Origin: an uncultured Chloroflexia bacterium
GTDB taxonomy: Bacteria > Chloroflexota > Anaerolineae > Anaerolineales > Villigracilaceae
DNA: 64,000 bases
Assembly: GCA_963801385.1 (NCBI GenBank)
Contig: CAWDEV010000003.1
Coordinates: forward strand, 338,687-402,686
Direction of reading: 5' to 3'
Shown in pieces: positions 7,896 through 59,607 of this stretch. The notes beneath the pieces are model-generated. The model saw nothing but the letters and a program-made list of their open reading frames with translations, made no database searches and was not told the origin of the DNA. Numbering within the stretch: the first letter of the stretch is position 1; the number at the start of each line of letters is the position of its first letter. The position numbers and the translations under genes were made by a program.

Positions 7896-8004
7896 AAAAT
7901 TCGATCTAATTATAAAATGCAGCGTCCCGCAGATTATGCCGCTTGGTCGGGCTGGTTTACCCGAACGAGCGGCAGGCTCAGGACAGGCCTGCGGGACGTT
8001 TTGC

Positions 8005-8859
8005 CTATTTAGCTGTGACGAAGACCACGCCCACCAACCCTGAGCCGGAGTGGATGGATAGCCCCGGATTCATCGCGACATACATGCAATCCGCTGGACA
8101 GGGCATGGCGGCCCGGAGCTGTTTCTCGAACAGCCCGGCTGCATCCAAAGCATTGACGTGGATGATGGCCATGCGCTCGACCTTTCCCCCGGCACTGGCT
8201 TCGACGGCGGCCTCGATGGCACGAGCCCAGGATTTGGACTGGGTGCGAACGCGTTCGAACATCTGCAGCCTGCCATCCATGACAGATAGAATCGGTTTGA
8301 CATCCATTAACCCAGCCAAGCCGGCTGCCAGATGACCGACGCGGCCACTCATCGCCAGGTATTTCAGGGTCGCAAGCGAGGCAAAGGTATGAGCCCTTTG
8401 CCCGGTGCTTTCGGCAGCCGCGAGGGCTTCTTCTTCAGATGCTCCCGCAGCGACAGCCTCGGATGCGGCAATGGCCATGAATCCTTGTTCCAGGCCCACT
8501 TTGCGAGTGTCAATTACGCGAATATCCTTGCCAGGAAGCATTTCGACAGCATTCCGGGCAGAAACATAGGTGGCGCTGACCTCACTGCTGACATTGAAGC
8601 ATAACACCGATCTTGCCCCGGCCTCAAAGGCGGAGTTGAAAGCCTCGACGAATTGACCGGGAGAAGGCGCAGCAGTTGTGGGGAACTTTCCTGTTTTATC
8701 GATGCGGTCAAACACGGCTGGATTGTCAATGTCATAGGCATCGCGATAGGAATCGTCCCCGAACTGGACCGTGATGGGGATTTGAACGATGTTGAATTTC
8801 CTTGCCAGGTCAAGTGGCAGGCTGGAATCGGTATCAGTGATAATGGCGATAGGGGGCAT
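8005..8859 (-). CDS. DegV-family fatty-acid-binding protein
   Basis: The ORF 8005..9225 is trimmed to ATG 8859 (MPPIAIITDTDSSLP...), the typical DegV N-terminus. The upstream part of the ORF reads through a REP palindrome and the csoR promoter region. Confidence 0.85.
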   Translation of the reverse strand: MPPIAIITDTDSSLPLDLARKFNIVQIPITVQFGDDSYRDAYDIDNPAVFDRIDKTGKFPTTAAPSPGQFVEAFNSAFEAGARSVLCFNVSSEVSATYVSARNAVEMLPGKDIRVIDTRKVGLEQGFMAIAASEAVAAGASEEEALAAAESTGQRAHTFASLATLKYLAMSGRVGHLAAGLAGLMDVKPILSVMDGRLQMFERVRTQSKSWARAIEAAVEASAGGKVERMAIIHVNALDAAGLFEKQLRAAMPCPADCMYVAMNPGLSIHSGSGLVGVVFVTAK

Positions 8860-9786: not shown

Positions 9787-12252
9787 ATGGGTACAACAAA
9801 ACAATTAACGCTTCCAATCACCGGCATGACCTGCGCCAATTGCGTGGCGACCGTGGAACGCGGTCTTAAAAAACAGGCCGGTGTCCAGGCGGCGGTGGTC
9901 AACCTGGCCTCCGAGCGTGCCACGGTGACATTCGACCCGCTCGCGGTGGGCCTGCCGGCACTGGTGGCACGCGTCGAGCGCGCCGGCTACGGCATTGCCA
10001 CCGGTGAAGCGGACCTGGTGATCAAGCGCCTGGCTGACAGCAATGATGCCAGCCGTCTAGAAAAGGCGCTGGCGAAACTGGATGGCGTCCTGGAGGCGTC
10101 CGTGAGCCTGGCAACCGAACGGGCGCGCCTTAAATACGTGCCAACGGTTGTGAGCCAGGCTGAAATGCGCGCGGCAGTTTCCAAAGCCGGATTTGAAGCG
10201 TTGGAGTTGGGAGGCGAAGCGGAAGATGTCGAAGCAAAGGCGCGCGAGTCTGAGATTGACAACCAGCGCCGTCTGTTGATCATTGGCCTGGCATTTACCA
10301 TCCCGTTATTCCTGTTCTCGATGGCCCGTGACATGGGCTTTTTGGGTATGTGGGCGCATGCTGCCTGGGTGAACGGTCTGATGTGGGCAGTGGCCACGCC
10401 GGTGCAGTTCTACGTGGGATGGCAGTACTACGTGGGGGCTTACAAAGCACTGCGGAACCGCTCAGCCAACATGGACGTGCTGATCGCGATGGGTTCGTCG
10501 GTGGCTTATTTCTATTCAATCTTCATTACCCTGGGTGTGCTTCCCGGCCATGTTTATTTTGAAACGGCGGCGGTGATCATCACGCTGATCCGCCTGGGGA
10601 AGTTCCTGGAGGCACGCGCCAAAGGTAGAACCAGCGAAGCGATCAAGAAGCTGATGGGCTTGCGCGCCAAAACTGCGCATATCATGCGGGCCGGGGTGGA
10701 GTCGGAAGTTCCGGTTGACGAGGTAATGGTGGGGGATCTGGTGCTTGTCCGGCCCGGTGAGAAGATCGCGGTGGATGGCGTGGTGGTGGAGGGGCGTTCG
10801 GCAGTGGATGAATCGATGCTGACAGGCGAATCGCTGCCAGTCGAAAAAGGCCCCGGCGACCCGCTCATCGGTGCGACCATAAATAAACTCGGATTGCTCA
10901 AGTTCGAGGCCACCAAGGTTGGCAAGGAAACCGCCCTGGCGCAGATCATCCGGCTCGTGGAGGAAGCCCAGGGCAGCAAGGCTCCCATCCAGAAACTGGC
11001 TGATCAAGTCTCGGCGATCTTCGTCCCGGTGGTGCTTGGGATTGCGGCGCTTACCTTTCTGGTATGGTTCTTCATTGTCCCGGTCAATCCGGCTGTATCG
11101 CAGTTTACGCGTGCCCTGATCAACATGGTGGCTGTGCTGGTGATCGCCTGCCCGTGTGCGATGGGATTGGCCACGCCGACTGCGGTGATGGTTGGGACGG
11201 GCAAGGGTGCGGAGATGGGCGTCCTCTTCCGCAACAGTGAAGCCCTTGAACGCGCCGGCAAGGTCTCGGTGGTGGTGCTGGATAAAACCGGGACGATCAC
11301 AAAAGGGCAGCCGGCGGTAACGGATGTAGTCGTCAGTCGGGAGTCGTCAGTCTCCAGTGAAGAACTCCTGCACCTGGCGGCTTCAGTTGAAAAAGGTTCG
11401 GAGCACCCGCTGGGCGAGGCCATCTGGGCTGAAGCTACAACGCGTGGGCTGGCGCTGTCTGAGCTGACCGGGTTCAAAGCCGAAGCCGGGGCGGGCGTTG
11501 AGGCCGAAGTGGATGGTCACGCCGTGACAGTCGGGACTCTGCGCATGATGACAACTCGAAATTATGCGCTGCATGGACTGGAAGCCGAAGTGGAACGCCT
11601 CCAATCCGAGGCCAAAACCGCCATGCTGGTGGCGGTGGATGGATCCGTGCAGGGAGTGATCGCCGTGGCCGATACGCTCAAGGACAGTTCGAGAGACGCT
11701 ATCGATGAATTGCACCGCATGGGCCTGAAAGTTGCCATGCTAACCGGCGATAACCGCAAGACGGCTGCAGCGATTGCAGGGCAGGTTGGCGTGGATACGG
11801 TCCTGGCGGAAGTGCTTCCGGAGGGGAAGGCGGCGGAGATAAAGGGGCTGCAAAATCCGACCATTGACGATCAACCATCGACCATCGTCCGACGTCCATC
11901 GTCCGTGGTCAATGTCGTCGCCATGGTAGGCGATGGCGTGAATGACGCCCCGGCACTGGCACAGGCGGATGTGGGTATTGCCATCGGCACTGGCACGGAT
12001 GTGGCCATGGCAGCCGCGCCGGTCACGCTGATCAGCGGTGACCTGCAGGGAGTGGCACGCGCCATTTCCCTCTCGCGCAAGACACTTGGGACCATCAAGC
12101 AGAACCTATTCTGGGCATTTTTCTACAATGTGATCCTGATCCCAGCGGCGGCCATGGGTTTTCTGAACCCAATGCTGGCAGCTGGAGCGATGGCTTTCAG
12201 CAGTGTTTTTGTCGTCTCCAACAGCCTGCGCCTAAGAAAAGCCAAACTCTAA
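9787..12252 (+). CDS. copA: Copper-translocating P1B-type ATPase with two N-terminal HMA domains
   Basis: 821 aa with GMTCANC, the CPC motif in TM6 ([11 protein letters not shown]), DKTGTIT and [10 protein letters not shown]. Confidence 0.95.
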
Positions 12253-46538: not shown

Positions 46539-47282
46539 TTATACCATTGGCGTTAAATGGCCCCAGGCCCAATATGTTGGCACGTACAAGAGGCGCTCGC
46601 CGCGCAGCCAGGCTTGTTTATCCAGGCGTTTCAAACGCTGCATTTCCTGCGGGGGAACCAGGCCGGCAAGATCGGCTTCCAGGACCGCCCATTCCATATC
46701 CTGTTCTTCGGGCGCAGGCGGACCCCCTCCATCGGCGCGCAAGCGGCCTGTTTCAATGAGCGGTATGCCTGCCTGACGGAATAATTCTTCCAGGTGTTCC
46801 CCCAGGCCTGGATCAGCTCCCTGCCGTTTCAAGGATTCAGCCTGCCCGCGGCCCAGCGCGGCCAGCTCGTCCGGCTTGTCGAGGCGGTGGTCATAATCGG
46901 GCTCAGCCAGGACCAGGATGTTCCCGCCGGGGCGGGTCAGGCGTTTCATTTCGCACAGAGCCTGCAACGGGTCACGCACCCACAGAAGCAGGAAATGACA
47001 AAAAATGATATCGAAGCTTGCGGAAGTATACGGCAGCGAGAGGGCATCCCCGCAGACGAGGCTGGCCTGCGGGGCATTCCGGTGAGCCTCCGCCAGGTGA
47101 GCGGGCTGGAGGTCAAGCCCGTGGATGGCGGCAGGTGTGTTCAGTCCAGAAATGATCGCGCCTGTCCCACAACCCACTTCAAGCACTCTGCGGGCAGATC
47201 CCAGACCGGTGCGTTTGAACAGATAGGCGCGCAGATCTTTCGTCCAGACGGCTTGCTGAACGTAGCGCTTATGCCACTCCAT
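46539..47282 (-). CDS. Class I SAM-dependent methyltransferase
   Basis: VLEVGCGTGAI is motif I. 247 aa. Confidence 0.8.
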   Translation of the reverse strand: MEWHKRYVQQAVWTKDLRAYLFKRTGLGSARRVLEVGCGTGAIISGLNTPAAIHGLDLQPAHLAEAHRNAPQASLVCGDALSLPYTSASFDIIFCHFLLLWVRDPLQALCEMKRLTRPGGNILVLAEPDYDHRLDKPDELAALGRGQAESLKRQGADPGLGEHLEELFRQAGIPLIETGRLRADGGGPPAPEEQDMEWAVLEADLAGLVPPQEMQRLKRLDKQAWLRGERLLYVPTYWAWGHLTPMV

Positions 47283-47838
47283 TCTCCAACCAATCCAGGA
47301 TGAATTTCACCTGCGCATCCGTCTCCGGAGATTGGGGATAAAGCCGGCTTTGCCCGGCTGTCCGGTAGAGTTCATTCAAACGGATAAGCGCCTGACCCCC
47401 GGTCAAGCCATGGCGGACCAACCAGCAGCCAACCGTCATGCCGGTGCGTCCAATGCCGCCCCAACAATGCAGATATACTTTGCGCCCTGCATTAAGGGAG
47501 GCGTCAATGGCATCCAGGAGGGTCAGCATGTGCGCATGTTCCGGCAGGCCCCAGTCCTGGATTTCGAGGCGTTGATATTGGATGGAGACGCCATACCGGG
47601 CAGCCTGATTCTGCAGCTCCGCCAGGTAAGGCGGCCTTTCCCCCGGGCGGGTCAGGTCGAAGAAGGTATCAAAACCGGCCTCCAGGAAGGCGACCAGGGA
47701 TGACCGGACAAAATCCTGATTGCGGCTGTTGGCCGGGTATCCCCCTGCCAAGAAAGATCCCGGAATGACCCAATATGATTCGGGGAAGGGTTTATCTGTC
47801 ATGAAGGAATCCCTCAGATCATGGCATGTGACAGTCAC
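47269..47838 (-). CDS. Dual-specificity / protein-tyrosine phosphatase-like protein
   Basis: The CX5R P-loop reads HCWGGIGRTG. Confidence 0.75.
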   Translation of the reverse strand: MTVTCHDLRDSFMTDKPFPESYWVIPGSFLAGGYPANSRNQDFVRSSLVAFLEAGFDTFFDLTRPGERPPYLAELQNQAARYGVSIQYQRLEIQDWGLPEHAHMLTLLDAIDASLNAGRKVYLHCWGGIGRTGMTVGCWLVRHGLTGGQALIRLNELYRTAGQSRLYPQSPETDAQVKFILDWLENGVA

Positions 47839-48275
47839 AAGGGTATCTCAAGCAGCACCTGGAGGATCTCTGCCGCGTCCCGCACCAGGGACCGGCAAAT
47901 GGTGGTGGATTTTCCCGTGCGTTTGACCTCCTGCCAGCCTTCGGGGGTGCTGATGTCGCAGCCAAGCAATTCGCGGCAAAGTAATGTACCGTGATTATTC
48001 TCAAACCGGCGCATAAACTCCTGCGAAAGCCGGTAAATATCCTCCTTGCCGGCGGGTGTATCGGCGCCGCGCGCCAGACCCAGGACCAGCAACCCTCCGG
48101 TGACCGCGCCGCAGATTTCGCCGCGCCGGGCCACGCCGCCGCCAAAAGGGGAAGCAAGTTTGAGTGCGGTCCTGCCAGCCAGGCCGAACTGCGCAGCGAA
48201 AGCTGAGAATACAGACTGTGAGCAGTTAAAACTTTTTCCAAAAACGGAGACAGCGGTTTCGGCAGGTGTGGACAT
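47835..48275 (-). CDS. C_GCAxxG_C_C-family protein
   Basis: FNCSQSV ... GEICGAVTGG ... C..LLGC pattern. Confidence 0.75.
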   Translation of the reverse strand: MSTPAETAVSVFGKSFNCSQSVFSAFAAQFGLAGRTALKLASPFGGGVARRGEICGAVTGGLLVLGLARGADTPAGKEDIYRLSQEFMRRFENNHGTLLCRELLGCDISTPEGWQEVKRTGKSTTICRSLVRDAAEILQVLLEIPL

Positions 48276-49321: not shown

Positions 49322-50719
49322 TCATGGTTTGTAAATTTTTTCCCACGGATCTTTCAGGAAATTCCCCAGGATCTGGTCCGCCTGCCCCTGGGTCGGGAGA
49401 ACGTCACCGTCCGGTTCCACATAAAGCCAGGCTTTGCCTGCACCGGAGGGGACTTCGTCCTCGATGGTTTCATGGGATACCGGGTTTTCGGCGGAGTAGG
49501 GCACGGGCAGGTCCCAGCGCAGGGTCAGGCCCAGGCTGGAGGCCTGGTTGTGCAAACCATGCAGGGCTTCGTGCAGGGAGGCATCAGAGGCACCCAGCGA
49601 GAGGCTCTTTACCTGCAGCCCAGCCAGTTTTTGGAGCGTCTCACCGGATTGCGCAACGTTCCCCGGCGTGACAGTCAGGTGGACGGTGGTGTACAGGTCT
49701 TCCGGGAGAATGGTTTCAAGCGCCTGCCAGGAGGCCGGGTTCTCCGGCTGGAGGATGAAGAGCAGGTGGTCGAGACCGGTCCGCAGCAGGTTTTGCAGAT
49801 AGGTCTTATTGGCCAGCTTAAGACCGTCCGTAAGCAGGCCGGTGACCTGGCCGACCTTCTCGGCATGGGCGATCAGGGCAGGCAAATCATCGCGCAGGGT
49901 CGGCTCGCCACCGGTGAAGGTGATGTGCGGGATGCCAGCGGCCCAGGCCTTATTGAGGACGGACTGCCACTCTTCGGTGGTCAGTTCGCGGTCAACGCGC
50001 CGGGTGGGAGCATATTCCGCCTGGGTGCCGGTGGGCAGGCGGTAGGTCAGGGCACAGTCGAGGCGCAAGGGCGCGGTCAAATATTGGGAATGGGGTGCGA
50101 CCCGTTCGAAGTCCAGGTACGTGGTCGGATCCAGGTCAGGTGTATGGATCATGGTCTGGACACGGTCGCGGAAATCCTGGTAATCCTTCCTTGCCTCCGG
50201 CAGACTGATCTGATAGCGATCGGAAACCCGCTCGGCGACCACATCCGGTTCCGAACCTTTCATCATATGATAGGCGAACTCGGCGGCGGTGGCATTCAGG
50301 TGCAGGACTGTGGCAGCGTTGACGATCAGAATGCCGGAGCCATCCTTCAAGAGCCGGAGGTGCAGACGGTAGGCTGGTTCATCCGGTCCGGACTGGAAGG
50401 TATGGGTATCCGGGGGTAAAGGCGCCGCCCTTTTCGGCTTTTCGGCGAGGAACCAGAGCAGGATCGCTCCTGCCAGCAGGAGGACCAACTGGAGGATAAG
50501 GCCATATTTATGAAAAAAGCCGCGGCCCTCGGAAAGAAAGAAGATGGCCGCCCCCAGCAGGATCACAGCCCCGATCATGCGAACTGGCACGCCTTTAACC
50601 TTGTATTTGCTGACCCTGAGTCTGCCAGCAATGAGAAGATACGCGCCGAAAGCGAACATACAAACAGAGATAAAAATCCTTGCGACGAGGGATAAAGTTT
50701 GCGTTATGTTTGGGGACAT
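49322..50719 (-). CDS. Membrane-anchored PqqD-like RRE + degenerate (Cys-less) radical-SAM-like domain protein
   Basis: 465 aa with three N-terminal TM helices. The rest is a clear paralog of 52127..53450 (RLHLRLLKDGSGILIVNAATVLHLN; IPHITFTGGEPTLRDDLPALIAHAE). However, CxxxCxxC is replaced by LTYRLPTGTQAEYAP and the SPASM cysteines are absent. Confidence 0.7.
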   Translation of the reverse strand: MSPNITQTLSLVARIFISVCMFAFGAYLLIAGRLRVSKYKVKGVPVRMIGAVILLGAAIFFLSEGRGFFHKYGLILQLVLLLAGAILLWFLAEKPKRAAPLPPDTHTFQSGPDEPAYRLHLRLLKDGSGILIVNAATVLHLNATAAEFAYHMMKGSEPDVVAERVSDRYQISLPEARKDYQDFRDRVQTMIHTPDLDPTTYLDFERVAPHSQYLTAPLRLDCALTYRLPTGTQAEYAPTRRVDRELTTEEWQSVLNKAWAAGIPHITFTGGEPTLRDDLPALIAHAEKVGQVTGLLTDGLKLANKTYLQNLLRTGLDHLLFILQPENPASWQALETILPEDLYTTVHLTVTPGNVAQSGETLQKLAGLQVKSLSLGASDASLHEALHGLHNQASSLGLTLRWDLPVPYSAENPVSHETIEDEVPSGAGKAWLYVEPDGDVLPTQGQADQILGNFLKDPWEKIYKP

Positions 50720-50734
50720 CGCAGCCTCCTGTCA

Positions 50735-51082
50735 TTAATCGCGTATGAAGTGCGGCATTTCGATTGGAAGTTCCAAAGAAAGTTCAATGAAACCGGCATA
50801 TTCACCGTTGAGGTACCAAGGGGATTGATAAATAAGCTTCTTGACGCCGTTCTTCTCAATGGTATAAACATTGCGCTGGCGCGCCTTCATCAGGCCAGTC
50901 AATTCACTGCGCGCCGGCTCGGGGTGACAATCGAACACATTTTTACCAATCAGCGCGCGCCCGCCATCTTCTTCGAATGTCAAGGCAGATTTATCATTCA
51001 TTTCGATGATAATGCCATCCGGATCGCAGACGGTGACTGCGCCGGGGAATTCTTTGACCCAGGAATAATCAGCTGTTTTCAT
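50735..51082 (-). CDS. Small PAS-like protein
   Basis: 115 aa. VTVCDPDGIIIEMNDKSALTF...GKNVFDCHPE is PAS-like. It forms an ATGA overlap with the upstream peptidase gene. Confidence 0.55.
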   Translation of the reverse strand: MKTADYSWVKEFPGAVTVCDPDGIIIEMNDKSALTFEEDGGRALIGKNVFDCHPEPARSELTGLMKARQRNVYTIEKNGVKKLIYQSPWYLNGEYAGFIELSLELPIEMPHFIRD

Positions 51083-52110
51083 CGTAAAGGAGCCTCGAAT
51101 TGTGTCAAAAGATTGTAGAGAATGGAAATGAAGAGGTTCAAGTGCGCATCCACCCTGCCTGGGAAATTGGTATCCAGATATTCAAGCGTATCGTACTGCG
51201 TATGACGGATAACGCCGTGATCACCGAAACGCACATCCACTTGCGTGGAACCCTTTTTATTGCCAATGGTCCAGTTGGCAGCCTGGAAATAAGCGATAGG
51301 AATCCCGGCGTCCCGGAAGGGGGCGTAATCAGAGGAGCCCTTACCACTGGCCGGGTCGGTCAAATCGACATTCCGAATGGTCTGCAAATCGAAACCATTC
51401 CCGGTGGCCCACTCGAGTGCCCAGTCGCGCACGGACGACTGCGGGTCTTCGTCGCTGTAAACGTAGGCAATATCGCCGGCAACCAGGGAGTCGAGATCGA
51501 TCATGGCAATCACATTTTCGAATTCCTCCTGGCTCATCTGGTTCAGGTAAGCATAAGACCCCAATAAGCCGCTTTCTGCTGCGCCAAAAGCAATGAAACG
51601 GATGGTATAGGGGTTTCCTCCATTTTGGAGGAGCTTGGCCACTTCCAACATGACAGCCACGCCGGAGGCATTATCGTCTGCTCCGGGCGAGGCATCTGTA
51701 GAATCGTAGTGCGCCCCGACAATAATCTCCTGGGAAGAGCTCCCGGTTTTTATTGCGATCACATTGGCCGAGGTAATGTTCTTATCTCCAACGGTGGCGG
51801 TGAACGGCAGGGTTTCAGGTTCATACCCAATCGCTTTGAAAAAACTCGCGATGTACTGGGCAGCCTGAGTTTCCGCATCCGATCCCGGCACTCTTGCGCC
51901 CATGTTTGTAAAGTCCCGCATGAGAGGCCGCGCAACTTCCCCGCCATATTGGGCAACCGCTGCGGCTGGTTGTGAGGAGGAGGATGTACTCACCGGGAGC
52001 AGGGTTGCGGCTGCCGCAGTTGGCACGATCGGGGTGGCCCCACCGGCGATGTTACATCCATTCAAGACCAGCGCGACCAGGAGAAAAAGAGGTAGTATGC
52101 GTTTCATCAA
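51079..52110 (-). CDS. M28-family aminopeptidase, probable lipoprotein
   Basis: It has a lipobox (LVLNGC), HYDS...GADDNASGVAVMLE and zinc-ligand regions. Confidence 0.8.
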   Translation of the reverse strand: MMKRILPLFLLVALVLNGCNIAGGATPIVPTAAAATLLPVSTSSSSQPAAAVAQYGGEVARPLMRDFTNMGARVPGSDAETQAAQYIASFFKAIGYEPETLPFTATVGDKNITSANVIAIKTGSSSQEIIVGAHYDSTDASPGADDNASGVAVMLEVAKLLQNGGNPYTIRFIAFGAAESGLLGSYAYLNQMSQEEFENVIAMIDLDSLVAGDIAYVYSDEDPQSSVRDWALEWATGNGFDLQTIRNVDLTDPASGKGSSDYAPFRDAGIPIAYFQAANWTIGNKKGSTQVDVRFGDHGVIRHTQYDTLEYLDTNFPGRVDAHLNLFISILYNLLTQFEAPLR

Positions 52111-52126
52111 GTATTACTCCTTATAT

Positions 52127-53450
52127 TTAAGATAGAGAAAGAATATTCATGGATTCAAACTGTAATGGACAACCACCGCCACATTCGGCCAACAGGGCAC
52201 AGCCAACGCACTTCTGGGGCAGATTTTTTCGTTCACGCAACTGGACTGCCAACGAATGGTTCCAGATGGACTCCCATTCATCAGTCAGCAGGTTGCCAAG
52301 CGGCTGATAATACGACTGGCAGGGCAGGACATTCCCGTCGGGTTCGACACACATGTTATACAGAGCTGCTGTGCAGCCCTTCACGCCCAGATCAAGCGCC
52401 ATCGGGTCAAAATTACAATAGCGGGTCGGCGTATACCAGATGAGACGCTGGCCGCGCATTCCAGTTTTTTGACGGGCGATCTCCAGCAGCGCGGCCAACT
52501 CAGACTCGGCCAATCCCGTCCCGACCACAAGGCCGCGCCCTGCGTGGATTAAAGCATTGAGCCCAACGGTCGGGACACCCGTCTCAGCCAGGAAATCCAG
52601 CGTGGCCGGGATGGTGTGGACATTCGTCTGCAGCATGGTGGTGTTGGTCATCGCGAAGAGCGGGCTGGCCAGGACATTCTTCAGGCCCTTGACCGTCTGG
52701 AGGAAGGCGCCTTTTGCATGCACCATCTGGTCATGCACTTCAGCCTCGCTCGAACTCAAGCGTGATCTGCACATGGTCCAACCCGGCCTCGACCAGCGTC
52801 TCAACGTAATGGGCGTCCGACAGGCGGCGGGCATTTGTATTAAGGCCGGTGATCTGGCCGTTATGCTCGGCGTGAGCAATCAACTCCGGCAGGTCTGCGC
52901 GCAGGGTCGGTTCGCCGCCAGTGAATATGATGTGCGGGATGCCCAACTCCCAGGCTCTATCGATGATGCGCTTCCAACTGCTGGTGGAAAGTTCAGCACT
53001 CATGCCCGATTTCTCTTCCGATGGAAGACGGGAAGGATGTTGAACATTGTAACAATGGGCACAGTCGTTATTGCAGCGATAGGTGAGCGCCAGGTCCAGG
53101 CGATATGGGGCAGTGGGACGCGCCGAGAACGGCATGATCGTTTCCAACCCCAGCTCATGGATCGGGCAGGCACCATCCGGACGGACAAGTTCCTCGAGCT
53201 GGCTGCGCAATGCGGCAAGGTCTGCGCGGGCCTGTGCTTTGCCGACGGAATATTTTTTCCGGATCAGGCGAACGGCCTCCTTTTCGGAGGTCTCCTCCAG
53301 GACGCAGTATGCCATCAGCGCGGCAGTCGGGTTCAGGTGCAGGATCCGGTTGGCGTTGATGATCAAGGTGCCATGGCCATCCGGATCCAGGCGCAGGTGG
53401 ATGCGGCTCTTTTCCTCCACCCCTTCGCGGCGGTAGTGATGGATGCTCAT
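52127..53450 (-). pseudogene. PqqD-like RRE + radical SAM + SPASM maturase, interrupted by a +1 frameshift near 52754
   Basis: The upstream frame has RIHLRLDPDGHG (RRE), LTYRCNNDCAHCYN and FTGGEPTL, and ends ...DHVQITLEFERG*. The downstream frame continues SSEAEVHDQMVHAKGAF... to the SPASM motif CVGCALLAECGGGC. I trimmed the start to MSIHHYR (53450) because the ORF upstream reads through REP repeats. Confidence 0.75.
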
Positions 53451-53463
53451 GACGGTCTTCTGA

Positions 53464-53543
53464 GTTCGAAGTCTGGAGACTTCGGACTCCGTAATCTTGG
53501 ACTCCGTAATCTTGGACTCCGAAGTCTCGAGACTTCGGAGTCC
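53464..53543. repeat. REP cluster: two palindromes (GTTCGAAGTCTGGAGACTTCGGAC; GGACTCCGAAGTCTCGAGACTTCGGAGTCC) plus GGACTCCGTAATCTT x2
   Basis: Read directly. It lies immediately 3' of the RAYT gene. Confidence 0.75.
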
Positions 53544-53601
53544 GTCATCGTGAACTGAAGGCTTTTTCTTCACCTTGCGAGTAAATAAATCCTGGATACC
53601 T

Positions 53602-54135
53602 TTAAAATTCTGGGACATCTTCAACCTCTATGGGTGCTTTTCCAACATCAAACCACTCTTTTTCAATAAAATCCATATAGTTGGAATATGGATATTCTGC
53701 TGGATCCTGAATCAACCCATGCTTGACTGGATTCCAAAAAACGTATCGAAGCCGGTTCAGGTAATCCTCAATAGACCGAATGCAAGTATCCCAATAATTC
53801 CACCACACCTTGCGGCCAACAGACTTATCTTCTGCATTCCATCGGCGTGCAGTGAACTTGTGATAACTTGCCACAAATTTTGACAGGCTACCTGGATCGT
53901 TTAGAGGTGATTCCAGGATTACATGGTAATGGTTGTCCATCACAACCCAGGCAATGGCTTTCCAATGGTAAAGCTCGGATGAAGTAAGAAGTGCTTCTGC
54001 AAGCTCTCTCTTACGGCTATTATTTTGGATGAGAGGCTGTCCTTTATAGACCGAACCAGTAAGCATATATAACTGATCTCCCACGAATATATGGGGGGGA
54101 GTGTGATGACCCGGCTTGAATATGATTTCAGTCAT
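53602..54135 (-). CDS. REP-associated tyrosine transposase (RAYT; IS200/IS605 Y1 HUH family)
   Basis: ORF 53602..54240 is trimmed to MTEIIFKPGHH. It has the HUH motif NHYHVIL and the catalytic-Tyr helix YVFWNPVKHGL, and is flanked on both sides by REP arrays. Confidence 0.8.
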   Translation of the reverse strand: MTEIIFKPGHHTPPHIFVGDQLYMLTGSVYKGQPLIQNNSRKRELAEALLTSSELYHWKAIAWVVMDNHYHVILESPLNDPGSLSKFVASYHKFTARRWNAEDKSVGRKVWWNYWDTCIRSIEDYLNRLRYVFWNPVKHGLIQDPAEYPYSNYMDFIEKEWFDVGKAPIEVEDVPEF

Positions 54136-54177
54136 TTTGACATTTCCGAAGAACAACCTTACCAAGTATTCGGGGAA

Positions 54178-54296
54178 TCCGACGTCTGGAGACGTCGGAC
54201 TCCGTGTATCCGAAGTCTGGGGACTTCGGAGTCCTTGCATCCGAAGTCTGGGGACTTCGGAGTCCTTGTATCCGACGTCTGGAGACGTCGGGGTCC
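54178..54296. repeat. Array of four roughly 31-bp REP units (ATCCGAAGTCTGGGGACTTCGGAGTCC / ATCCGACGTCTGGAGACGTCGGACTCC)
   Basis: Four tandem palindromic units read directly, lying immediately 5' of the RAYT gene. Confidence 0.8.
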
Positions 54297-54312
54297 AGGA
54301 CTGGGGAGTACG

Positions 54313-56001
54313 TTACCTACCTCCTCCGGCGCAGGCGCAGGCGCAACCGGCGCAGGCGCAGGCGCACGCGCAGCCGCCGCTATGAAAACCGCCTCCGCCA
54401 CGGCCGCCGCCGGAGCTCTTGACGATCGGGACAGGATTGGTGCGGTTGGTGACGGCAGAGGTAAAGGATTGCGTATTACCGAGCACCTTGCTGGAGAAAT
54501 TCTGTACGCCGGTGACGACCGAGGCGGCGAAAGTTGCACCCGGCAGGCTGGCCTGTCCACCCGAGGAGGGCATCGAAGCGGTATGGGGCGTGCCGGTTGA
54601 AACCGGGCCGGTCGAGACCGGACGATAGCCGGGATCATAACGGCCCCACCACATGGGTACAAAAACCGGGCCGGTGAAGGTGCGCTGGGTGCGGTCATCG
54701 TAGTTCTTGTCAAGCATGGTCCACTCAAGGTTTTGATCGTATAGCTGGCTCTTGACCTCGGGTGTGCCAGCCGTTTCAATCTGCTGCCAGGCGCGTTCCA
54801 TGATGTCCTTGTAGAAGGCGACCGTCTCCTTGCGGCTAAAGCCTTTCATTTTTTCGGAAATACTGTTGACCAGCTTGACGGTCATTTCCTGCAGCGCTTT
54901 GCGGCGCGCGGCCAAGTCTTCCATGGCAAAGGCCTGCAGAAAATCCGTTTCGTAATCGTGCAGGTCGGCCGGCAGAGGCTCCGCCGCTTGGATCTTGAGC
55001 GGGTCACGCGTTACCACCGTGGCGGCATTTTTCTTGACCAGGCCGAACAGGATCATGGTCATGACCTTGTCGAGCGGCTCTTCCATCAGGATGCCGGCTT
55101 CAACCGCCGTCAGGCCGCGCTTGATGCCGTGCCCTTCGATCTGGATCTTCGGCGGCAGGTATTGGAGCTTGCGTTTCTTATTGTTAATCGCTCCCAGAAT
55201 TGGCGATCCGACAAAAATCAGGAGGAAGAATCCTATGCAGCAAATCGGCTGCAGATTCTTGAAAATGCCGGCAATGAAACCTCCAAAATTGAAAGCCGGG
55301 GGTGTGACGATGGTATTGGCCGGGATAATGCTCATCGGGAAGGAGGCTCCAAAGGTGTAGCGGGTGGAAGCCTTGGCGGTGGCACATTTCCAGGCATACG
55401 CAGGGCGGTTCTGATCATCTGTTCCGGTCAGAGGCTGGTCATCGCAGGGCCAGCCGCCCTGGGTGCTGTGCCAGCGCGGTTGATCCGTTGTCACTCCGGC
55501 GGGAAAATGGAAGAAGATGTCCATTTCCGTGTCACCATGCGCGGTGGTCCAATAGGCTGGAGAGAAATCTGCGCTGGCATATGCTTCCCCTTGTGACGGA
55601 TCCTTGTATAAAACACCACTGATCCCCTTGACGGTCACATGCACGCTGCCAGTGGCACCGGGTTGGATGGCATGTGAGCCCATATCCACTGCAAAGCCAT
55701 AGGGCCCGTCTCCTTGAAAATCCGAGGAAACGTTGAGCGCATCGCCATCGACATCGGCAGTGACCCTGCCCAGGTCATAGTTTCCATTGGGCATACCTAC
55801 GTCCACAAAGTCGATGACGTGAGCGCCCGGGTCGTTGACAAAGGTGAATTGGTAATCCAGGTCGAGAGTCCCGTCACTGTTCCAGAAAACATCCACGACT
55901 TCCTGGCTTACGTTGAAGGAATACGACTGGGCTGCCACATTGCTGGTGAATATGAACAACATCGCAATGAGCAGCATGGAGGCGATCAGGCGAGGTTTCA
56001 T
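54313..56001 (-). CDS. DUF2207-like exported/membrane protein with a C-terminal Gly/(Cys-Ala)n tail
   Basis: It starts at MKPRLIASMLL (signal peptide ...NVAAQ). It has an extracellular domain, TM segments and a GLTAVEAGILMEEPLDKVMTMILFGLVKKNA segment like the DUF2207 C-terminal region. The tail reads GGGRGGGGFHSGGCACACACAGCACACAGGGR. Confidence 0.65.
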   Translation of the reverse strand: MKPRLIASMLLIAMLFIFTSNVAAQSYSFNVSQEVVDVFWNSDGTLDLDYQFTFVNDPGAHVIDFVDVGMPNGNYDLGRVTADVDGDALNVSSDFQGDGPYGFAVDMGSHAIQPGATGSVHVTVKGISGVLYKDPSQGEAYASADFSPAYWTTAHGDTEMDIFFHFPAGVTTDQPRWHSTQGGWPCDDQPLTGTDDQNRPAYAWKCATAKASTRYTFGASFPMSIIPANTIVTPPAFNFGGFIAGIFKNLQPICCIGFFLLIFVGSPILGAINNKKRKLQYLPPKIQIEGHGIKRGLTAVEAGILMEEPLDKVMTMILFGLVKKNAATVVTRDPLKIQAAEPLPADLHDYETDFLQAFAMEDLAARRKALQEMTVKLVNSISEKMKGFSRKETVAFYKDIMERAWQQIETAGTPEVKSQLYDQNLEWTMLDKNYDDRTQRTFTGPVFVPMWWGRYDPGYRPVSTGPVSTGTPHTASMPSSGGQASLPGATFAASVVTGVQNFSSKVLGNTQSFTSAVTNRTNPVPIVKSSGGGRGGGGFHSGGCACACACAGCACACAGGGR

Positions 56002-56186
56002 CAGGGCCATCCTTTCAAAAACAAGAAAGAACAATTCTTGATCTTGTTCAGACTATCTATACCCGGTAATCCTGGTATTTTCATCACGAATCCAGCAAAG
56101 AATGCTGGACAGGTGGGACGAATTATCCGAACGGTACGAATGTTATTTGTCTCATCGTGGTATTCGGGGCATTCGTAATCAGGAAT

Positions 56187-56582
56187 TTACCACTTGGGTT
56201 CTTCGGTCAATTGATACACGGTACCACAGAACGGACAGGTGACCATGGGGGCACCATTGACCAGCTTGATATTGTCGGCGGTCAATACGCCACCGCAGGA
56301 TTTGCATTTCATGGCGTCGATCTTGGTCTCCCCGGGCAGGTCCACTTTGAGGGTGACGTTCTGGGCGGTTTCCTGGCGGGTCCTGCGGGCAGCCACAACG
56401 AGCATGGCAACCCCGGCAACCAGGGCCAGCAGGCCAAGGACCACCCCCGTACTGCCAATGCCGGTCACGCCTTGTGCACCCCCTGAGGCACCCAGCAGGA
56501 TAAAGCCTCCAACACAAATCCCGGCAGCAGCCAACACCAGAAGGATGACTGCTCCTATATATATTCCGGTTGAAGATTTCAT
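56187..56582 (-). CDS. Two-TM membrane protein with a C-terminal zinc ribbon
   Basis: 131 aa with two Gly/Ala/Val-rich helices followed by CKSCGG...CPFCG. Confidence 0.6.
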   Translation of the reverse strand: MKSSTGIYIGAVILLVLAAAGICVGGFILLGASGGAQGVTGIGSTGVVLGLLALVAGVAMLVVAARRTRQETAQNVTLKVDLPGETKIDAMKCKSCGGVLTADNIKLVNGAPMVTCPFCGTVYQLTEEPKW

Positions 56583-56860: not shown

Positions 56861-58504
56861 ATGCAAAAGAAAGTCGTCCTCGCGGCTGCGCTGGGGGAAT
56901 GTGTCCACGTGGCAGGAGTTTCCAATTTCCTGCGCCTGGCAGAGGCGGCTGGCTGGCAGACGATCTTTCTGGGCCCGGCGGTGCCGATCGAACGCGTGCT
57001 GGAAGCTGCCAGAAAAGAAAAGGCCGACCTGGTGGGTGTCTCGTACCGGTTGACACCCGAAACCGGCGAGCGCCTGCTGGGAGAGTTCGCCGAGGCCGCA
57101 TCTGAACTGCGCGAAAGCGGCGTCCGCTTTGCCTTCGGGGGGACGCCGCCGGTGGCGGAAAGGGCCAGCCGACTTGGCTTTTTCGAGCGGATTTTTGATG
57201 GAAGTGAATTGCCCGAACAGGTGCTGGCATACCTGAAAGGCCAGACAGGCCCGGGCAGCTCGGCAGTGGATTATCCGCAGACGATGGTGGAGCGCATCCA
57301 GTGGAAGAGCCCTTACCCCATCCTGCGCCATCACTTTGGACAGCCGACCATGGAAGAGACCGAGCGCGGTATCGAGAAGATCGCCGAGGCGCAAGCACTG
57401 GACGTCATCTCGCTGGGGATCGACCAGGATGCGCAGGAGAACTTTTTCCATCCCGAACGGCAAGATCCACGCCGGAAGGGGGCGGGAGGCGTGCCGGTAC
57501 GCAGTGCAGAGGATTACCGGAGGCTGTATGCCGCCAGCCGGCGGGGAAATTTCCCGCTGCTGCGAACCTACTCCGGCACGGACGATTTCATCCGGCTGGC
57601 TGAAATGTACGTGGAAACCATCAAGATGGCCTGGTGCGCCATCCCGCTCTTCTGGTTTAACCGGATGGATGGGCGCGGGCCGTGGGACCTGGAAGGCTCC
57701 ATCCGGGAGCACCAGCAGGTGATGCGCTGGTACGGCGGGCGCGGCATCCCGGTGGAGTTGAACGAAGCGCATCACTGGGGCATGCGGGATGCGCCGGATG
57801 TGGTCTTTGTGGCGGCGGCATTCCTCTCAGCCTATAACGCCAGGAAGTTTGGCGTGCGGGATTATGTCGCACAATTGATGTTCAACAGCCCGCCCGGCCT
57901 GACGGACGCGATGGACCTGGCAAAGATGGCTGCGGTGCTGGAATTAATCGGGCCGCTGAGGGGCAAAGGTTTCTCGATTTGGAAGCAGACGCGCACCGGG
58001 CTGCTCAGTTACCCCTTGAACGCGGATGCGGCACGCGGACACCTGGCAGCCAGCATTTACCTGCAGATGGCGCTGAAACCGGATATCATTCACATTGTTG
58101 GGCATACCGAGGCGCACCACGCTGCGACGGCGGAGGATGTGATCGAGGCCAGCCAGATCGCCCGGCGCTCGATCGAGAACTCCGTGCGCGGCGCGCCGGA
58201 GATGACCTGGGACCCGGCGGTGCAGAGGCGCAAGGAGGAACTGCTGGCCGAAGCCCGGATCACGCTGGAGGCGATACGCGGGCTGGCGCGGGCGGGCACG
58301 GCAGACCCCTGGACGGATGCCGCCACCCTTGCGAAGGCAGTGACCTCCGGCATCCTGGACGCGCCGCAGTTAAAGAATAATCCCTTCGCACGAGGGCAGG
58401 TGCGCACGCATATCCTCAACGGGCAGTGCGTTGCCGTGAATCCAAACGGGCAACCCATCAGCGAGTCTGAACGTCTCACCACACTGGCAAAGGAGCAAGC
58501 ATGA
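56861..58504 (+). CDS. Fusion of a B12-binding-like Rossmann domain (CxHxxG variant) with a glutamate-mutase-E-like TIM barrel
   Basis: The N-terminus KKVVLAAALGECVHVAGVSNF...KADLVGVS aligns, from memory, to GlmS KKTIVLGVIGSDCHAVGNKIL...KADAILVS. The C-terminal IIHIVGHTEAH... and GILDAPQLKNNPFARGQVRTHILNGQCVAV resemble GlmE VIVKTPHEA... and [29 protein letters not shown]. Confidence 0.6.
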   Translation: MQKKVVLAAALGECVHVAGVSNFLRLAEAAGWQTIFLGPAVPIERVLEAARKEKADLVGVSYRLTPETGERLLGEFAEAASELRESGVRFAFGGTPPVAERASRLGFFERIFDGSELPEQVLAYLKGQTGPGSSAVDYPQTMVERIQWKSPYPILRHHFGQPTMEETERGIEKIAEAQALDVISLGIDQDAQENFFHPERQDPRRKGAGGVPVRSAEDYRRLYAASRRGNFPLLRTYSGTDDFIRLAEMYVETIKMAWCAIPLFWFNRMDGRGPWDLEGSIREHQQVMRWYGGRGIPVELNEAHHWGMRDAPDVVFVAAAFLSAYNARKFGVRDYVAQLMFNSPPGLTDAMDLAKMAAVLELIGPLRGKGFSIWKQTRTGLLSYPLNADAARGHLAASIYLQMALKPDIIHIVGHTEAHHAATAEDVIEASQIARRSIENSVRGAPEMTWDPAVQRRKEELLAEARITLEAIRGLARAGTADPWTDAATLAKAVTSGILDAPQLKNNPFARGQVRTHILNGQCVAVNPNGQPISESERLTTLAKEQA

Positions 58505-59607
58505 ACACCCCTGAAAGATACACCGTAATCGGCGCCGGGCATGGCGGCAAGGCCATGGCGGCCCACCTGGCGTTGATGAAATTGAAGGTCACGTTGTATA
58601 ACCGCACGTTCGACCATATCAGTGTGATCAAAAAACGCGGCGGGATTGAACTGGAAAGCGCCGGGGACGGGCCGCACGGGTTTGGCAAGCTCGTCACTGT
58701 GACCTCGGATATGGGCGAGGCGCTCAAGAAAGCCCAGATGATCATGGTGGTGGTGCCATCTTCCGCGCACGCAGATATTGCCAAAGCCGCCGCCAAATAT
58801 CTTAAGAATGGACAGATCATCGTCCTTCATCCGGGGCGCACCTGCGGGGCGCTGGAATTTGCCAAAGTGCTGCGGGATGAGGGCTGCACGGCGGATGTCA
58901 TCATTTCAGAAGCCGAGACATTCATTTATGCCAGCCGCTCGGACGGACCGGCCCAGGCGCGCATTTTCCGCATCAAGGAAGCCGTCCCGCTGGCAGCGCT
59001 GCCGGCGGTACGGAATGAACAGGTACTGGAGGCCATCGGAACCATCTATCCCCAGTTCATCGATGGCGTGAATGTATTGAATACCGGTCTGAATAATATG
59101 GGGGCGATCTTTCACCCGGCGCTGACACTGCTCAATGCAGGCTGGATCGAGGCCACGCATGGCGATTACCAGTTCTATATTGATGGCGTGACCCCTTCGG
59201 TGGCGCGCGTGCTGGAGACGCTTGACCGTGAACGCGTGACGGTGGCCTCGAGCCTGGGAATCCGCGCCCAAACCGGTTTGGAATGGCTCAAAATGGCTTA
59301 TGATACCACCGGCGAGGATCTGCTGGAGGCCATCCACAACCAGCCGGGTTATTACGGCATCAAAGCACCGAGTACGCTGGGACACCGTTATATTTTCGAG
59401 GATGTGCCGATGAGCCTGGTGCCAATCGCCTCGCTGGGCGAGAGGTTTGGCGTGTCGGTGAGCGGGATGGACAGCATCATCCGCCTGGCGTGTATCGTGC
59501 ACCGCACCGACTACTGGAAACGCGGCCGCACCGTGGATAAGCTGGGCATCGGTGACCTGAGCGTGGCGGAGCTGATGCGGTATGTAAACGAGGGGGTGAG
59601 GGATTAA
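58501..59607 (+). CDS. Opine (octopine/nopaline) dehydrogenase-family NAD(P) oxidoreductase
   Basis: 368 aa with YTVIGAGHGGKAMAAHLA (Rossmann) and NMGAIFHPALTLLNAGWIE. It forms an ATGA overlap with the upstream gene. Confidence 0.8.
   Translation: MNTPERYTVIGAGHGGKAMAAHLALMKLKVTLYNRTFDHISVIKKRGGIELESAGDGPHGFGKLVTVTSDMGEALKKAQMIMVVVPSSAHADIAKAAAKYLKNGQIIVLHPGRTCGALEFAKVLRDEGCTADVIISEAETFIYASRSDGPAQARIFRIKEAVPLAALPAVRNEQVLEAIGTIYPQFIDGVNVLNTGLNNMGAIFHPALTLLNAGWIEATHGDYQFYIDGVTPSVARVLETLDRERVTVASSLGIRAQTGLEWLKMAYDTTGEDLLEAIHNQPGYYGIKAPSTLGHRYIFEDVPMSLVPIASLGERFGVSVSGMDSIIRLACIVHRTDYWKRGRTVDKLGIGDLSVAELMRYVNEGVRD

Follow-up and report, generated by a model that had tools for sequence, protein, structure and literature searches.

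The 64,000-nucleotide stretch of DNA analysed here (the window; contig CAWDEV010000003.1 of an uncultured Chloroflexota bacterium) encodes a radical S-adenosylmethionine (rSAM)/SPASM enzyme and, on the same strand, a paralog of it that has lost its cluster-binding cysteines (hereafter the pseudo-rSAM). This enzyme pair is part of a larger, undescribed operon that is found in hundreds of Anaerolineae species. The conserved unit consists of five functionally linked genes, which encode a membrane protein with a Zn ribbon, a membrane protein ending in a Cys-Ala repeat (the CA-tail protein), the rSAM enzyme, the pseudo-rSAM and a methyltransferase. Within this operon we consider it rather likely, judging from the genes and their predicted products, that the rSAM enzyme modifies the cytoplasmic CA tail and that the dead paralog serves as a substrate-holding adaptor. 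Terms used below include RiPP (a peptide that is ribosomally synthesized and then post-translationally modified), RRE (RiPP recognition element), open reading frame (ORF) and transmembrane (TM). The members of the conserved unit and the two parts of the proposed substrate lie in the window as follows.

56187 to 56582, minus strand: Zn-ribbon membrane protein of 131 amino acids (ORF, TM segments and weak Zn-ribbon Pfam hits)
54313 to 56001, minus strand: CA-tail protein, the proposed substrate, of 562 amino acids if counted from the Met codon at 56001, in an ORF that reaches back to a TTG at 56034
54424 to 54549, minus strand: leader-like segment of the CA-tail protein, SLPGATFAASVVTGVQNFSSKVLGNTQSFTSAVTNRTNPVP, a candidate RRE recognition sequence (translation and column identity)
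54313 to 54372, minus strand: invariant core of the CA-tail protein, CACACACAGCACACAGGGR, with the stop codon (identity across species loci)
52127 to 53450, minus strand: RRE-bearing rSAM/SPASM enzyme, split into 52740 to 53450 and 52127 to 52879 (Pfam and ORF calls)
49322 to 50719, minus strand: pseudo-rSAM, the cluster-less rSAM paralog (BLASTP, Pfam and an AlphaFold2 model)
46539 to 47282, minus strand: class-I S-adenosylmethionine (SAM) methyltransferase (Pfam Methyltransf_11, 2.7e-21)

A conserved operon in Anaerolineae

A first-pass annotation had described a maturase of the rSAM/SPASM type that bears an RRE and is paired with a paralog devoid of cluster ligands. That pairing is supported, and a comparison of gene neighbourhoods showed that the enzyme pair is itself conserved. 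A scan of one genome per GTDB species, seeded with a 9-sequence alignment of pseudo-rSAMs (one of 26 distant pseudo-rSAMs proved too divergent a seed), returned at least 587 genomes with a pseudo-rSAM relative, and the best 80 of these were all titled Chloroflexota, mostly Anaerolineales. The window proteins were mapped by tblastn onto related loci and contigs, which carry labels of the form L001 below; counts out of 62 or 63 refer to the GTDB species loci that had enough flanking DNA. The rSAM/SPASM gene lies upstream of the paralog in 60 of 62 loci, and the CA-tail gene is found in 59 to 60 of them. In 56/62 loci the Zn-ribbon gene immediately precedes the CA-tail gene, and the methyltransferase gene recurs in 58/63, directly adjacent to the pseudo-rSAM gene in 20. 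This linkage holds over 80 GTDB species loci with changing flanks.

In a lineage whose pseudo-rSAM is 34-36% identical, the genes for the Zn-ribbon protein, the CA-tail protein, the rSAM enzyme, the paralog and the methyltransferase form a compact operon set between unrelated flanks. Its genes overlap or are separated by gaps of 8 bp, and there is therefore no space for a small precursor ORF. A rearranged and still more divergent locus, L210, retains an intact rSAM gene, a paralog without the Cys triad, the Zn-ribbon gene and two copies of the CA-tail gene. A promoter and terminator scan did not define the operon boundaries.

The class-I methyltransferase is probably a core member of the operon. 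It directly follows the pseudo-rSAM gene in many genomes, and in L085 it overlaps the pseudo-rSAM stop codon; in the window, prs and genes for a GCAxxG protein and a protein phosphatase stand between the two. The Zn-ribbon protein has 2 TM helices, a cytoplasmic CxxC...CPxC ribbon and basic loops that put its soluble domain in the cytoplasm. Its C-terminal domain, which ends in YQLTEEPKW, is near-invariant, and the gene is kept in deep lineages too.

A precursor-like tail on a membrane protein

The CA-tail protein is laid out as a signal peptide, a beta-sandwich outside the cytoplasm, a single TM helix, a winged-helix/helical domain inside it and a C-terminal module of leader plus core. No sequence match to it was found in Pfam, NCBIfam or the PDB, and its homologs, at least 4738 in number, are all named hypothetical. 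An AlphaFold2 model had a predicted local distance difference test (pLDDT) score of 63 overall and of about 90 in the ectodomain, with the tail disordered. With Foldseek only the ectodomain could be placed. It is a generic beta-sandwich that resembles ribophorin I and the N-domain of M1 peptidases and gives no functional clue. The residues NNKKRK after the TM helix point to a cytoplasmic tail under the positive-inside rule.

The tail has the form (CA)3-4-G-(CA)3-GGGR-stop, with a core of 19 residues. About 70 GTDB species share the identical C-terminus CACAC(AC)AGCACACAGGGR-stop, while their CA-tail proteins are elsewhere 52-83% identical, and this tail also occurs in a lineage with 42% overall identity. 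The two CA-tail proteins of L210, which are 24-30% identical, end in CACASCACACAGGGR and CACACASCACACAGGGR, tails that differ only by a change of the central G to S and by one or two fewer CA units. Among 72 tail copies there were 70 distinct DNA versions, which differ mostly at third codon positions; the tail is thus under extreme selection as protein and not as DNA. A constraint at the DNA or RNA level was rejected, as synonymous sites vary freely.

Metagenomes were scanned with a degenerate DNA pattern for the tail in which the central codon was left free, and this gave at least 122 matches. In all 122 listed matches the free codon encoded Gly and GGGR was immediately followed by a stop codon, and CA-tail homology was found upstream in 111 of the 122. 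Where at least 1.5 kb of downstream DNA was available, an rSAM or pseudo-rSAM gene followed in 78 of 80 listed matches.

The last ~80 residues of the CA-tail protein are arranged like a RiPP precursor, with a leader, a variable spacer and a core. Mean column identity in a 40-sequence alignment of this C-terminus is 0.61 in the upstream linker, 0.91 in the leader-like segment, 0.56 in the Gly/Ser/Arg spacer and 1.0 in the core. The leader-like segment (~40 amino acids; consensus SLPG..FAASVV.GVQ.FS.KV.G....FTS.VT.RTNP.P) is recognisable even in proteins that are only 24-42% identical overall. As in RiPP systems, a recognition part and a core part are encoded together, one or two genes upstream of the enzymes. 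What differs from a RiPP system with a short precursor is that the part is played by a membrane protein of ~560 amino acids, accompanied by no conserved protease or exporter. No stand-alone short precursor emerged from a search with the last 97 residues, which listed only proteins of at most 170 amino acids; 16 of the 16 that were read start at an internal Met, and such short tail-bearing proteins look like gene-call fragments of the full-length CA-tail protein.

This pattern of linkage and architecture suggests that the C-terminal tail of the CA-tail protein is probably the target of the rSAM enzyme. The first-pass annotation had called the enzymes an orphan cassette for which no precursor could be found. 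The probable precursor is instead a full-length protein encoded two genes upstream, behind the insertion of a REP-associated tyrosine transposase (RAYT), and a side remark in the same annotation on the Cys-Ala tail of 54313..56001 as a possible substrate proved to be the key lead.

A second CA-tail gene, paired with a gene for a soluble pseudo-rSAM, is found at L029 (8290-11137) and L040 (8258-11125), without an rSAM or Zn-ribbon gene; these pairs belong to the genomes of L010 and L013, respectively. The L029 pair lies between histidine-kinase/SpoIIE genes and a gene for a response-regulator-PAS-GGDEF-EAL protein, surroundings that hint at a signalling role.

The cluster-less paralog

The pseudo-rSAM is a paralog of the rSAM enzyme, as had been proposed, with 33% identity over ~400 amino acids (BLASTP, E 1e-60), and it has lost the cysteines of the radical SAM cluster and of the SPASM domain. 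Only 2 Cys are found in the whole protein (positions 20 and 222). Three N-terminal hydrophobic helices are followed by an RRE-like domain, a partial TIM barrel in a protein that has kept GGEPTL, and a Cys-less SPASM remnant. Pfam Radical_SAM matches it at 34.6 bits, and several members of the family carry precomputed PF05402 matches. An AlphaFold2 model (pLDDT 66) contains three TM helices, a partial TIM barrel, and three strands plus three helices at residues 120-192; the top Foldseek matches of this model are SkfB (first), PqqE, BlsE and SuiB. The residues KPKR after the third TM helix would, by the positive-inside rule, leave the soluble domain in the cytoplasm.

A search of 5.8 billion proteins with the pseudo-rSAM gave 6047 matches, the top 120 of which were all at least 70% identical, and among representatives at 50% identity there were 91 matches at E < 1e-30. 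CxxxCxxC was found in 0 of 84 related copies. The three N-terminal TM helices reported by the first-pass annotation are present in the window copy, but this anchor is restricted to about 20 of the 84 loci, the closest relatives, and more distant members are proteins of 370-400 amino acids with neither CxxxCxxC nor a membrane anchor. The paralog of L210 (8001-9326, P0183/P0527), from a divergent low-GC lineage, lacks the CxxxCxxC triad (ALTYRNNNKPIVTHLD) and keeps several Cys in the SPASM region; it could be an intermediate stage in the evolution of the pseudo-enzyme.

Because the nearest structures are PqqE and SkfB by sequence and SkfB, PqqE and SuiB by fold, the enzyme pair belongs with the RRE-dependent peptide maturases, outside any described subfamily.

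The catalytic enzyme and its frameshift

The rSAM enzyme contains both the CxxxCxxC motif LTYRCNNDCAHCYN (CNNDCAHC) and GGEPTL. The RRE, rSAM and SPASM domains that had been called from the letters alone are upheld by Pfam, with PqqD/RRE PF05402 at 29.1 bits (cut-off 23.4; residues 83-145 of the long ORF), Radical_SAM PF04055 at 70.1 bits (cut-off 29.5) and SPASM PF13186 at 38.4 bits (cut-off 21.5). There are 8 Cys in the C-terminal 90 residues, including CVGCALLAECGGGC, which supply ligands for two auxiliary clusters; together with CxxxCxxC, all three cluster-binding sites are kept. The solved structures nearest by sequence are PqqE (2.7e-20) and SkfB (5e-15). Every NCBIfam hit lies far below its curated cut-off, so no known family fits.

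The gene was at first taken for a single ORF at 52127..53450, and a frameshift within it was missed. It consists of two ORFs in different frames, 52740..53624 (with a probable start at 53450) and 52127..52879. The first frame ends in VQITLEFERG and a stop codon where orthologs read VQITLESSE. One extra T accounts for the split (CTTGAGTTCGAG versus CTTGAG-TCGAG in more than 60 orthologs; AA at 52753-52754 on the plus strand), and an intact ortholog is found at L001 7141..8634.

If the frameshift is real, the system could be decaying in the window's genome, with only its non-catalytic parts still functional, and the second-copy loci, which keep CA-tail and pseudo-rSAM genes without an adjacent rSAM gene, would be in keeping with such decay. 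However, both halves of the rSAM gene are otherwise intact and 70-90% identical to orthologs. The same insertion (GAGTTCGAG or GAGTTCAAG versus GAG-TCGAG) is found in L007 (~8004-8012) and L016 (~8574-8591), which are not the nearest relatives of the window, and it is absent from L005, which has 90% DNA identity at the site. The extra T occurs only in contig_N-style assemblies and in no NODE_ or k141_ (short-read-style) assembly. Many of the relatives are metagenome-assembled genomes (MAGs) of the Microflora Danica (MFD) project, assembled from Nanopore reads (PMC12313526), and scattered frameshifts were seen in other genes of several of these MAGs. Ten other ORFs of the window were checked, in three groups of neighbours, and none showed signs of a gene split between neighbouring ORFs. 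We therefore regard decay as quite improbable and favour a site-specific assembly artefact, which is at least as likely as the alternative of a real, recurrent change.

Two other explanations for the break were considered. A general basecalling artefact at GANTC sites was rejected: the window has 66 GAGTC/GACTC sites, and no sign of a split was seen in the ten other ORFs. Programmed +1 frameshifting is not favoured; there is no stop or rare codon at the site and no Shine-Dalgarno-like element upstream of it.

Proposed mechanism

In the mechanism that we propose, the rSAM enzyme would cleave SAM at its CxxxCxxC cluster to generate a 5'-deoxyadenosyl radical and, with the help of two SPASM clusters, would modify the Cys/Ala core. 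A hairpin at the central G9 of C1A2C3A4C5A6C7A8-G9-C10A11C12A13C14A15 could pair each Cys with an Ala. By analogy with sactipeptides, a ladder of Cys-to-Ala thioethers would be the most likely single chemistry, although we hold even this to be doubtful. The cluster-less paralog, which has kept an RRE-like region and GGEPTL, would bind the tail and present it as a non-catalytic adaptor. In the clade of the window, its three TM helices would tether it beside the membrane-bound substrate, and the methyltransferase would add a later modification.

Since KKRK follows the TM helix of the CA-tail protein and KPKR follows the third TM helix of the pseudo-rSAM, the tail, the adaptor domain and the enzyme would all be cytoplasmic. 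An adaptor role is favoured for the paralog because it has an RRE-like domain of its own, because it has a clade-specific anchor and because second pairs of CA-tail protein and paralog occur without a second rSAM. These second pairs would fit one adaptor per substrate copy with a shared catalyst. In a more specific form, which we put forward tentatively and at somewhat less than even confidence, the tail may be a protein-borne RiPP core which the rSAM enzyme, its obligatory dead paralog and the methyltransferase turn into a poly-thioether or metal-binding structure; this would be covalently attached to a receptor-like membrane protein on its cytoplasmic side.

The Cys/His-rich tails of metallochaperones work unmodified as metal binders. 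The CA tail could similarly be an unmodified tail that binds metal or an Fe-S cluster, in which case the substrate of the enzyme pair would be the Zn-ribbon protein, a cofactor or some small molecule, and the products of the operon would work together only in one membrane complex. Its seven alternating Cys would make a good set of metal ligands, the Zn-ribbon partner is equally conserved, a few loci have the CA-tail gene apart from the rSAM gene, and C-GCAxxG-C-C redox-type proteins are often encoded close by (33/63 loci). However, simple metal-binding tails usually vary in length and composition, whereas the CA tail keeps its length, its Ala residues, its central Gly and its GGGR end in proteins that are only 24-83% identical. 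The arrangement of leader, spacer and core, encoded beside one protein with an RRE and another with an RRE-like domain, is characteristic of a precursor recognised by an enzyme, and the compact operons hold no other precursor candidate. We consider an unmodified tail unlikely and retain the CA tail as the probable target of the rSAM enzyme.

Several points nevertheless weigh against a tail modified by the rSAM enzyme and held by its paralog. What suggests the tail as substrate is synteny together with a precursor-like architecture, and the thioether chemistry is a guess by analogy. Two loci, L043 and L062, have the rSAM and pseudo-rSAM genes and no CA-tail gene nearby, and two metagenome contigs, L130 and L196, have the CA-tail gene with no rSAM gene downstream. 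The PqqD match of the pseudo-rSAM, at 19.7 bits, is under the Pfam cut-off of 23.4. Both AlphaFold2 models are only moderate in confidence (pLDDT 63 and 66), and the tail is predicted to be disordered. The C-terminal YQLTEEPKW of the Zn-ribbon protein is itself near-invariant, and this protein could be the target or a co-target. Finally, the catalytic rSAM gene is frameshifted in the window, so the system may be inactive there.

Comparison with known systems

PqqE is the best NCBIfam match for both the rSAM enzyme and the pseudo-rSAM, at 123.9 and 73.3 bits, respectively, against a cut-off of 381.35 (TIGR02109). The PqqE/PqqD/PqqA system is alike in that its rSAM/SPASM enzyme depends on a PqqD-type RRE for binding a ribosomal precursor. 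In contrast to that system, the RRE is fused here and not separate, the core consists of Cys and Ala and not of Glu...Tyr, and the locus has no PqqA-like peptide or pqqBCDF genes. The neighbours of the enzymes in the window are the CA-tail protein, the RAYT, an M28 peptidase, a PAS protein and prs, with no PqqA-type precursor or pqqBCD among them.

The mycofactocin system (MftC/MftB/MftA) also combines an rSAM/SPASM enzyme with an RRE, has its core at the extreme C-terminus of the precursor and is associated with a peptidase in some loci. It is unlike the present system in its core, in a precursor of ~30 amino acids as opposed to a membrane protein of ~560, and in its MftD/E/F set, which is missing here; the MftC model (TIGR03962) gives the rSAM enzyme 81.7 bits against a cut-off of 265. 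The models for AhbD, AhbC and NirJ (TIGR04545, TIGR04546 and TIGR04051) give 120.9, 109.5 and 99.2 bits against cut-offs of 500-650 (NirJ 515, AhbD 500). The PqqE, MftC, AhbD and NirJ models thus all fall far below their cut-offs, and the enzymes belong to no characterised cofactor pathway.

The sactipeptide and ranthipeptide maturases SkfB, AlbA, StsB and CteB share the combination of RRE, rSAM and SPASM/twitch domains and form Cys thioether cross-links in Cys-rich cores. The system described here differs from theirs in having no short secreted precursor, transporter or immunity genes, and its thioether chemistry is putative; SkfB TIGR04403 scores 68.3 bits against 300, and StsB NF045574 scores 83.2 against 625. 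In the QhpD/QhpC system, an rSAM/SPASM enzyme installs Cys thioether cross-links in the gamma-subunit of quinohemoprotein amine dehydrogenase and not in a released peptide. Compared by description only, it is unlike the present system in that QhpC is small and soluble and there is no dead paralog. Action of rSAM/SPASM enzymes on C-terminal cores (MftC) or on protein subunits (QhpD) is therefore established. In the ACGX-repeat peptide system (TIGR04340/TIGR04341), an rSAM/SPASM enzyme targets a short repeat that contains Cys. The repeat of the present system is CA instead, has a fixed length and stands at the C-terminus of a protein; the ACGX rSAM model TIGR04340 gives 64.9 bits against 400.

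Pseudo-rSAM partners are known from Bacteroidales clusters (IPR026418), in which a cluster-less rSAM homolog of unassigned function is co-encoded with an active rSAM and a precursor (PMC10352776). Compared with the Bacteroidales and Halo pseudo-rSAMs, the paralog described here has an RRE-like domain of its own and is anchored in the membrane in one clade, and its locus has no GG-motif peptide or peptidase-containing ATP-binding cassette transporter (PCAT). TIGR04347 (pseudo-SAM/SPASM Halo) matches the pseudo-rSAM at 37.4 bits against a cut-off of 525, and no model by the name of GG-Bacteroidales pseudo-rSAM appeared among 25 of its 32 NCBIfam matches.

The first-pass annotation did not recognise a described system in these genes, and our searches agree. 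No Pfam or NCBIfam model covers it, no paper on it was found, and literature on the motif, on rSAM/SPASM systems of Anaerolineae and on pseudo-rSAMs yielded no description of it. New here are the type of the proposed substrate, a large membrane protein that ends in a RiPP-like module, the invariant CA core, an obligatory dead paralog with an RRE-like domain, and a fixed set of five genes.

Anaerolineae are filamentous bacteria that abound in soils, sediments and activated sludge, and few systems specific to their lineage have been characterised. If the more specific form of the proposed mechanism is true, the operon would make a post-translational modification or cofactor of a new class, confined to Anaerolineae and their relatives, and the paralog would become the first pseudo-rSAM to be given a role, that of substrate adaptor. 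RRE-dependent rSAM/SPASM enzymes are a main source of new peptide chemistry, and most of the uncharacterised ones have no known substrate. Here comparative genomics offers a precise and testable candidate, a 19-residue core unvaried over hundreds of species, together with a defined set of partners. The role of pseudo-rSAMs, the permanent decoration of full-length proteins by RiPP-type machinery and the fate of a Cys-Ala ladder under radical chemistry all become testable questions. The proteins currently carry names such as 'hypothetical protein', 'radical SAM protein' and 'PqqD family peptide modification chaperone', and the enzyme pair as well as the CA-tail and Zn-ribbon proteins merit new family models of their own.

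Accessory and neighbouring genes

Three further genes lie between the CA-tail gene and the pseudo-rSAM gene in the window.

53602 to 54240, minus strand: RAYT (NCBIfam NF047646, 100.7 bits against a cut-off of 80), found in 12/62 loci
51079 to 52110, minus strand: M28 aminopeptidase with a lipoprotein-type signal peptide ending in LNGC (Pfam Peptidase M28 PF04389, 126.8 bits against 21.3, 1.1e-36), found in 14/62 loci
50735 to 51082, minus strand: small PAS protein of 115 amino acids (Pfam PAS_4 PF08448, 24.2 bits against 23.1, a marginal pass), found in 45/62 loci and duplicated in 10

The window was initially read as a four-gene cassette of rSAM enzyme, M28 peptidase, PAS protein and pseudo-rSAM, maturing a peptide encoded elsewhere, with M28 as the trimming protease and the membrane-anchored pseudo-enzyme coupling modification to export. 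The four genes do run in the same direction on the minus strand, and the exported M28 and the 115-residue PAS protein do lie between the enzyme genes. Their packing is tight, with 15 bp between the pseudo-rSAM and PAS genes, an overlap of 4 bp between PAS and M28, and 16 bp between M28 and rSAM; in addition, L088, an unrelated lineage, has an M20/M28 peptidase gene beside the system. Tight packing does not mark the limit of a four-gene unit, however, as prs (19/63 loci) starts 9 bp past the pseudo-rSAM gene and is followed by overlapping genes for the GCAxxG protein, the phosphatase and the methyltransferase. Nor is the quartet conserved as a unit, given the counts for M28 and PAS above and an anchor confined to the closest clade, and both M28 and PAS are absent from the compact operons of deep lineages. 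M28 and PAS are lineage-specific accessories, PAS being frequent but dispensable. Since M28 is an exported lipoprotein, while the tail and both rSAM-type proteins are placed in the cytoplasm by the positive-inside rule, the peptidase seems poorly placed to trim the tail. A far better conserved substrate candidate is present in the same operon, and we judge the cassette reading very improbable beside modification of the CA tail.

The peptidase gene in L088 (9913-11373) encodes a 486-residue M20/M28 peptidase with a signal peptide and stands directly after the methyltransferase gene. It represents a second, independent association with an M28-type enzyme and keeps a peptidase link possible. The small PAS proteins (window 50735-51082; L003 9212-9637) share the motif DCHP(E/D)P, and some genomes have two tandem copies of the gene in place of M28.

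The RAYT gene, between the CA-tail and rSAM genes, is flanked by clusters of REP hairpins at 53462-53544 and 54174-54310. In the 12 related species that have it, it occupies the same intergenic spot, at 47-70% identity. It looks vertically inherited at a fixed site, as an insertion and not as a component of the system.

Of the genes between prs and the methyltransferase, the one for the C-GCAxxG-C-C redox-type protein lies at 47835-48275 and has the recurrence of 33/63 loci given above. The dual-specificity protein phosphatase gene (47269-47838) recurs in 49/63 loci and overlaps the methyltransferase gene by 14 nt. On the other side of the operon, a divergent pair on the plus strand (56861-59607) encodes a 547-residue protein that starts with a B12-binding domain, together with an octopine/nopaline-dehydrogenase-like protein; it adjoins the operon only in the closest relatives. 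Elsewhere in the window, positions 10001-12000, inside a long ORF (9787..12252), stand apart from the rest with a GC content of 0.597 and a GC skew of +0.154.

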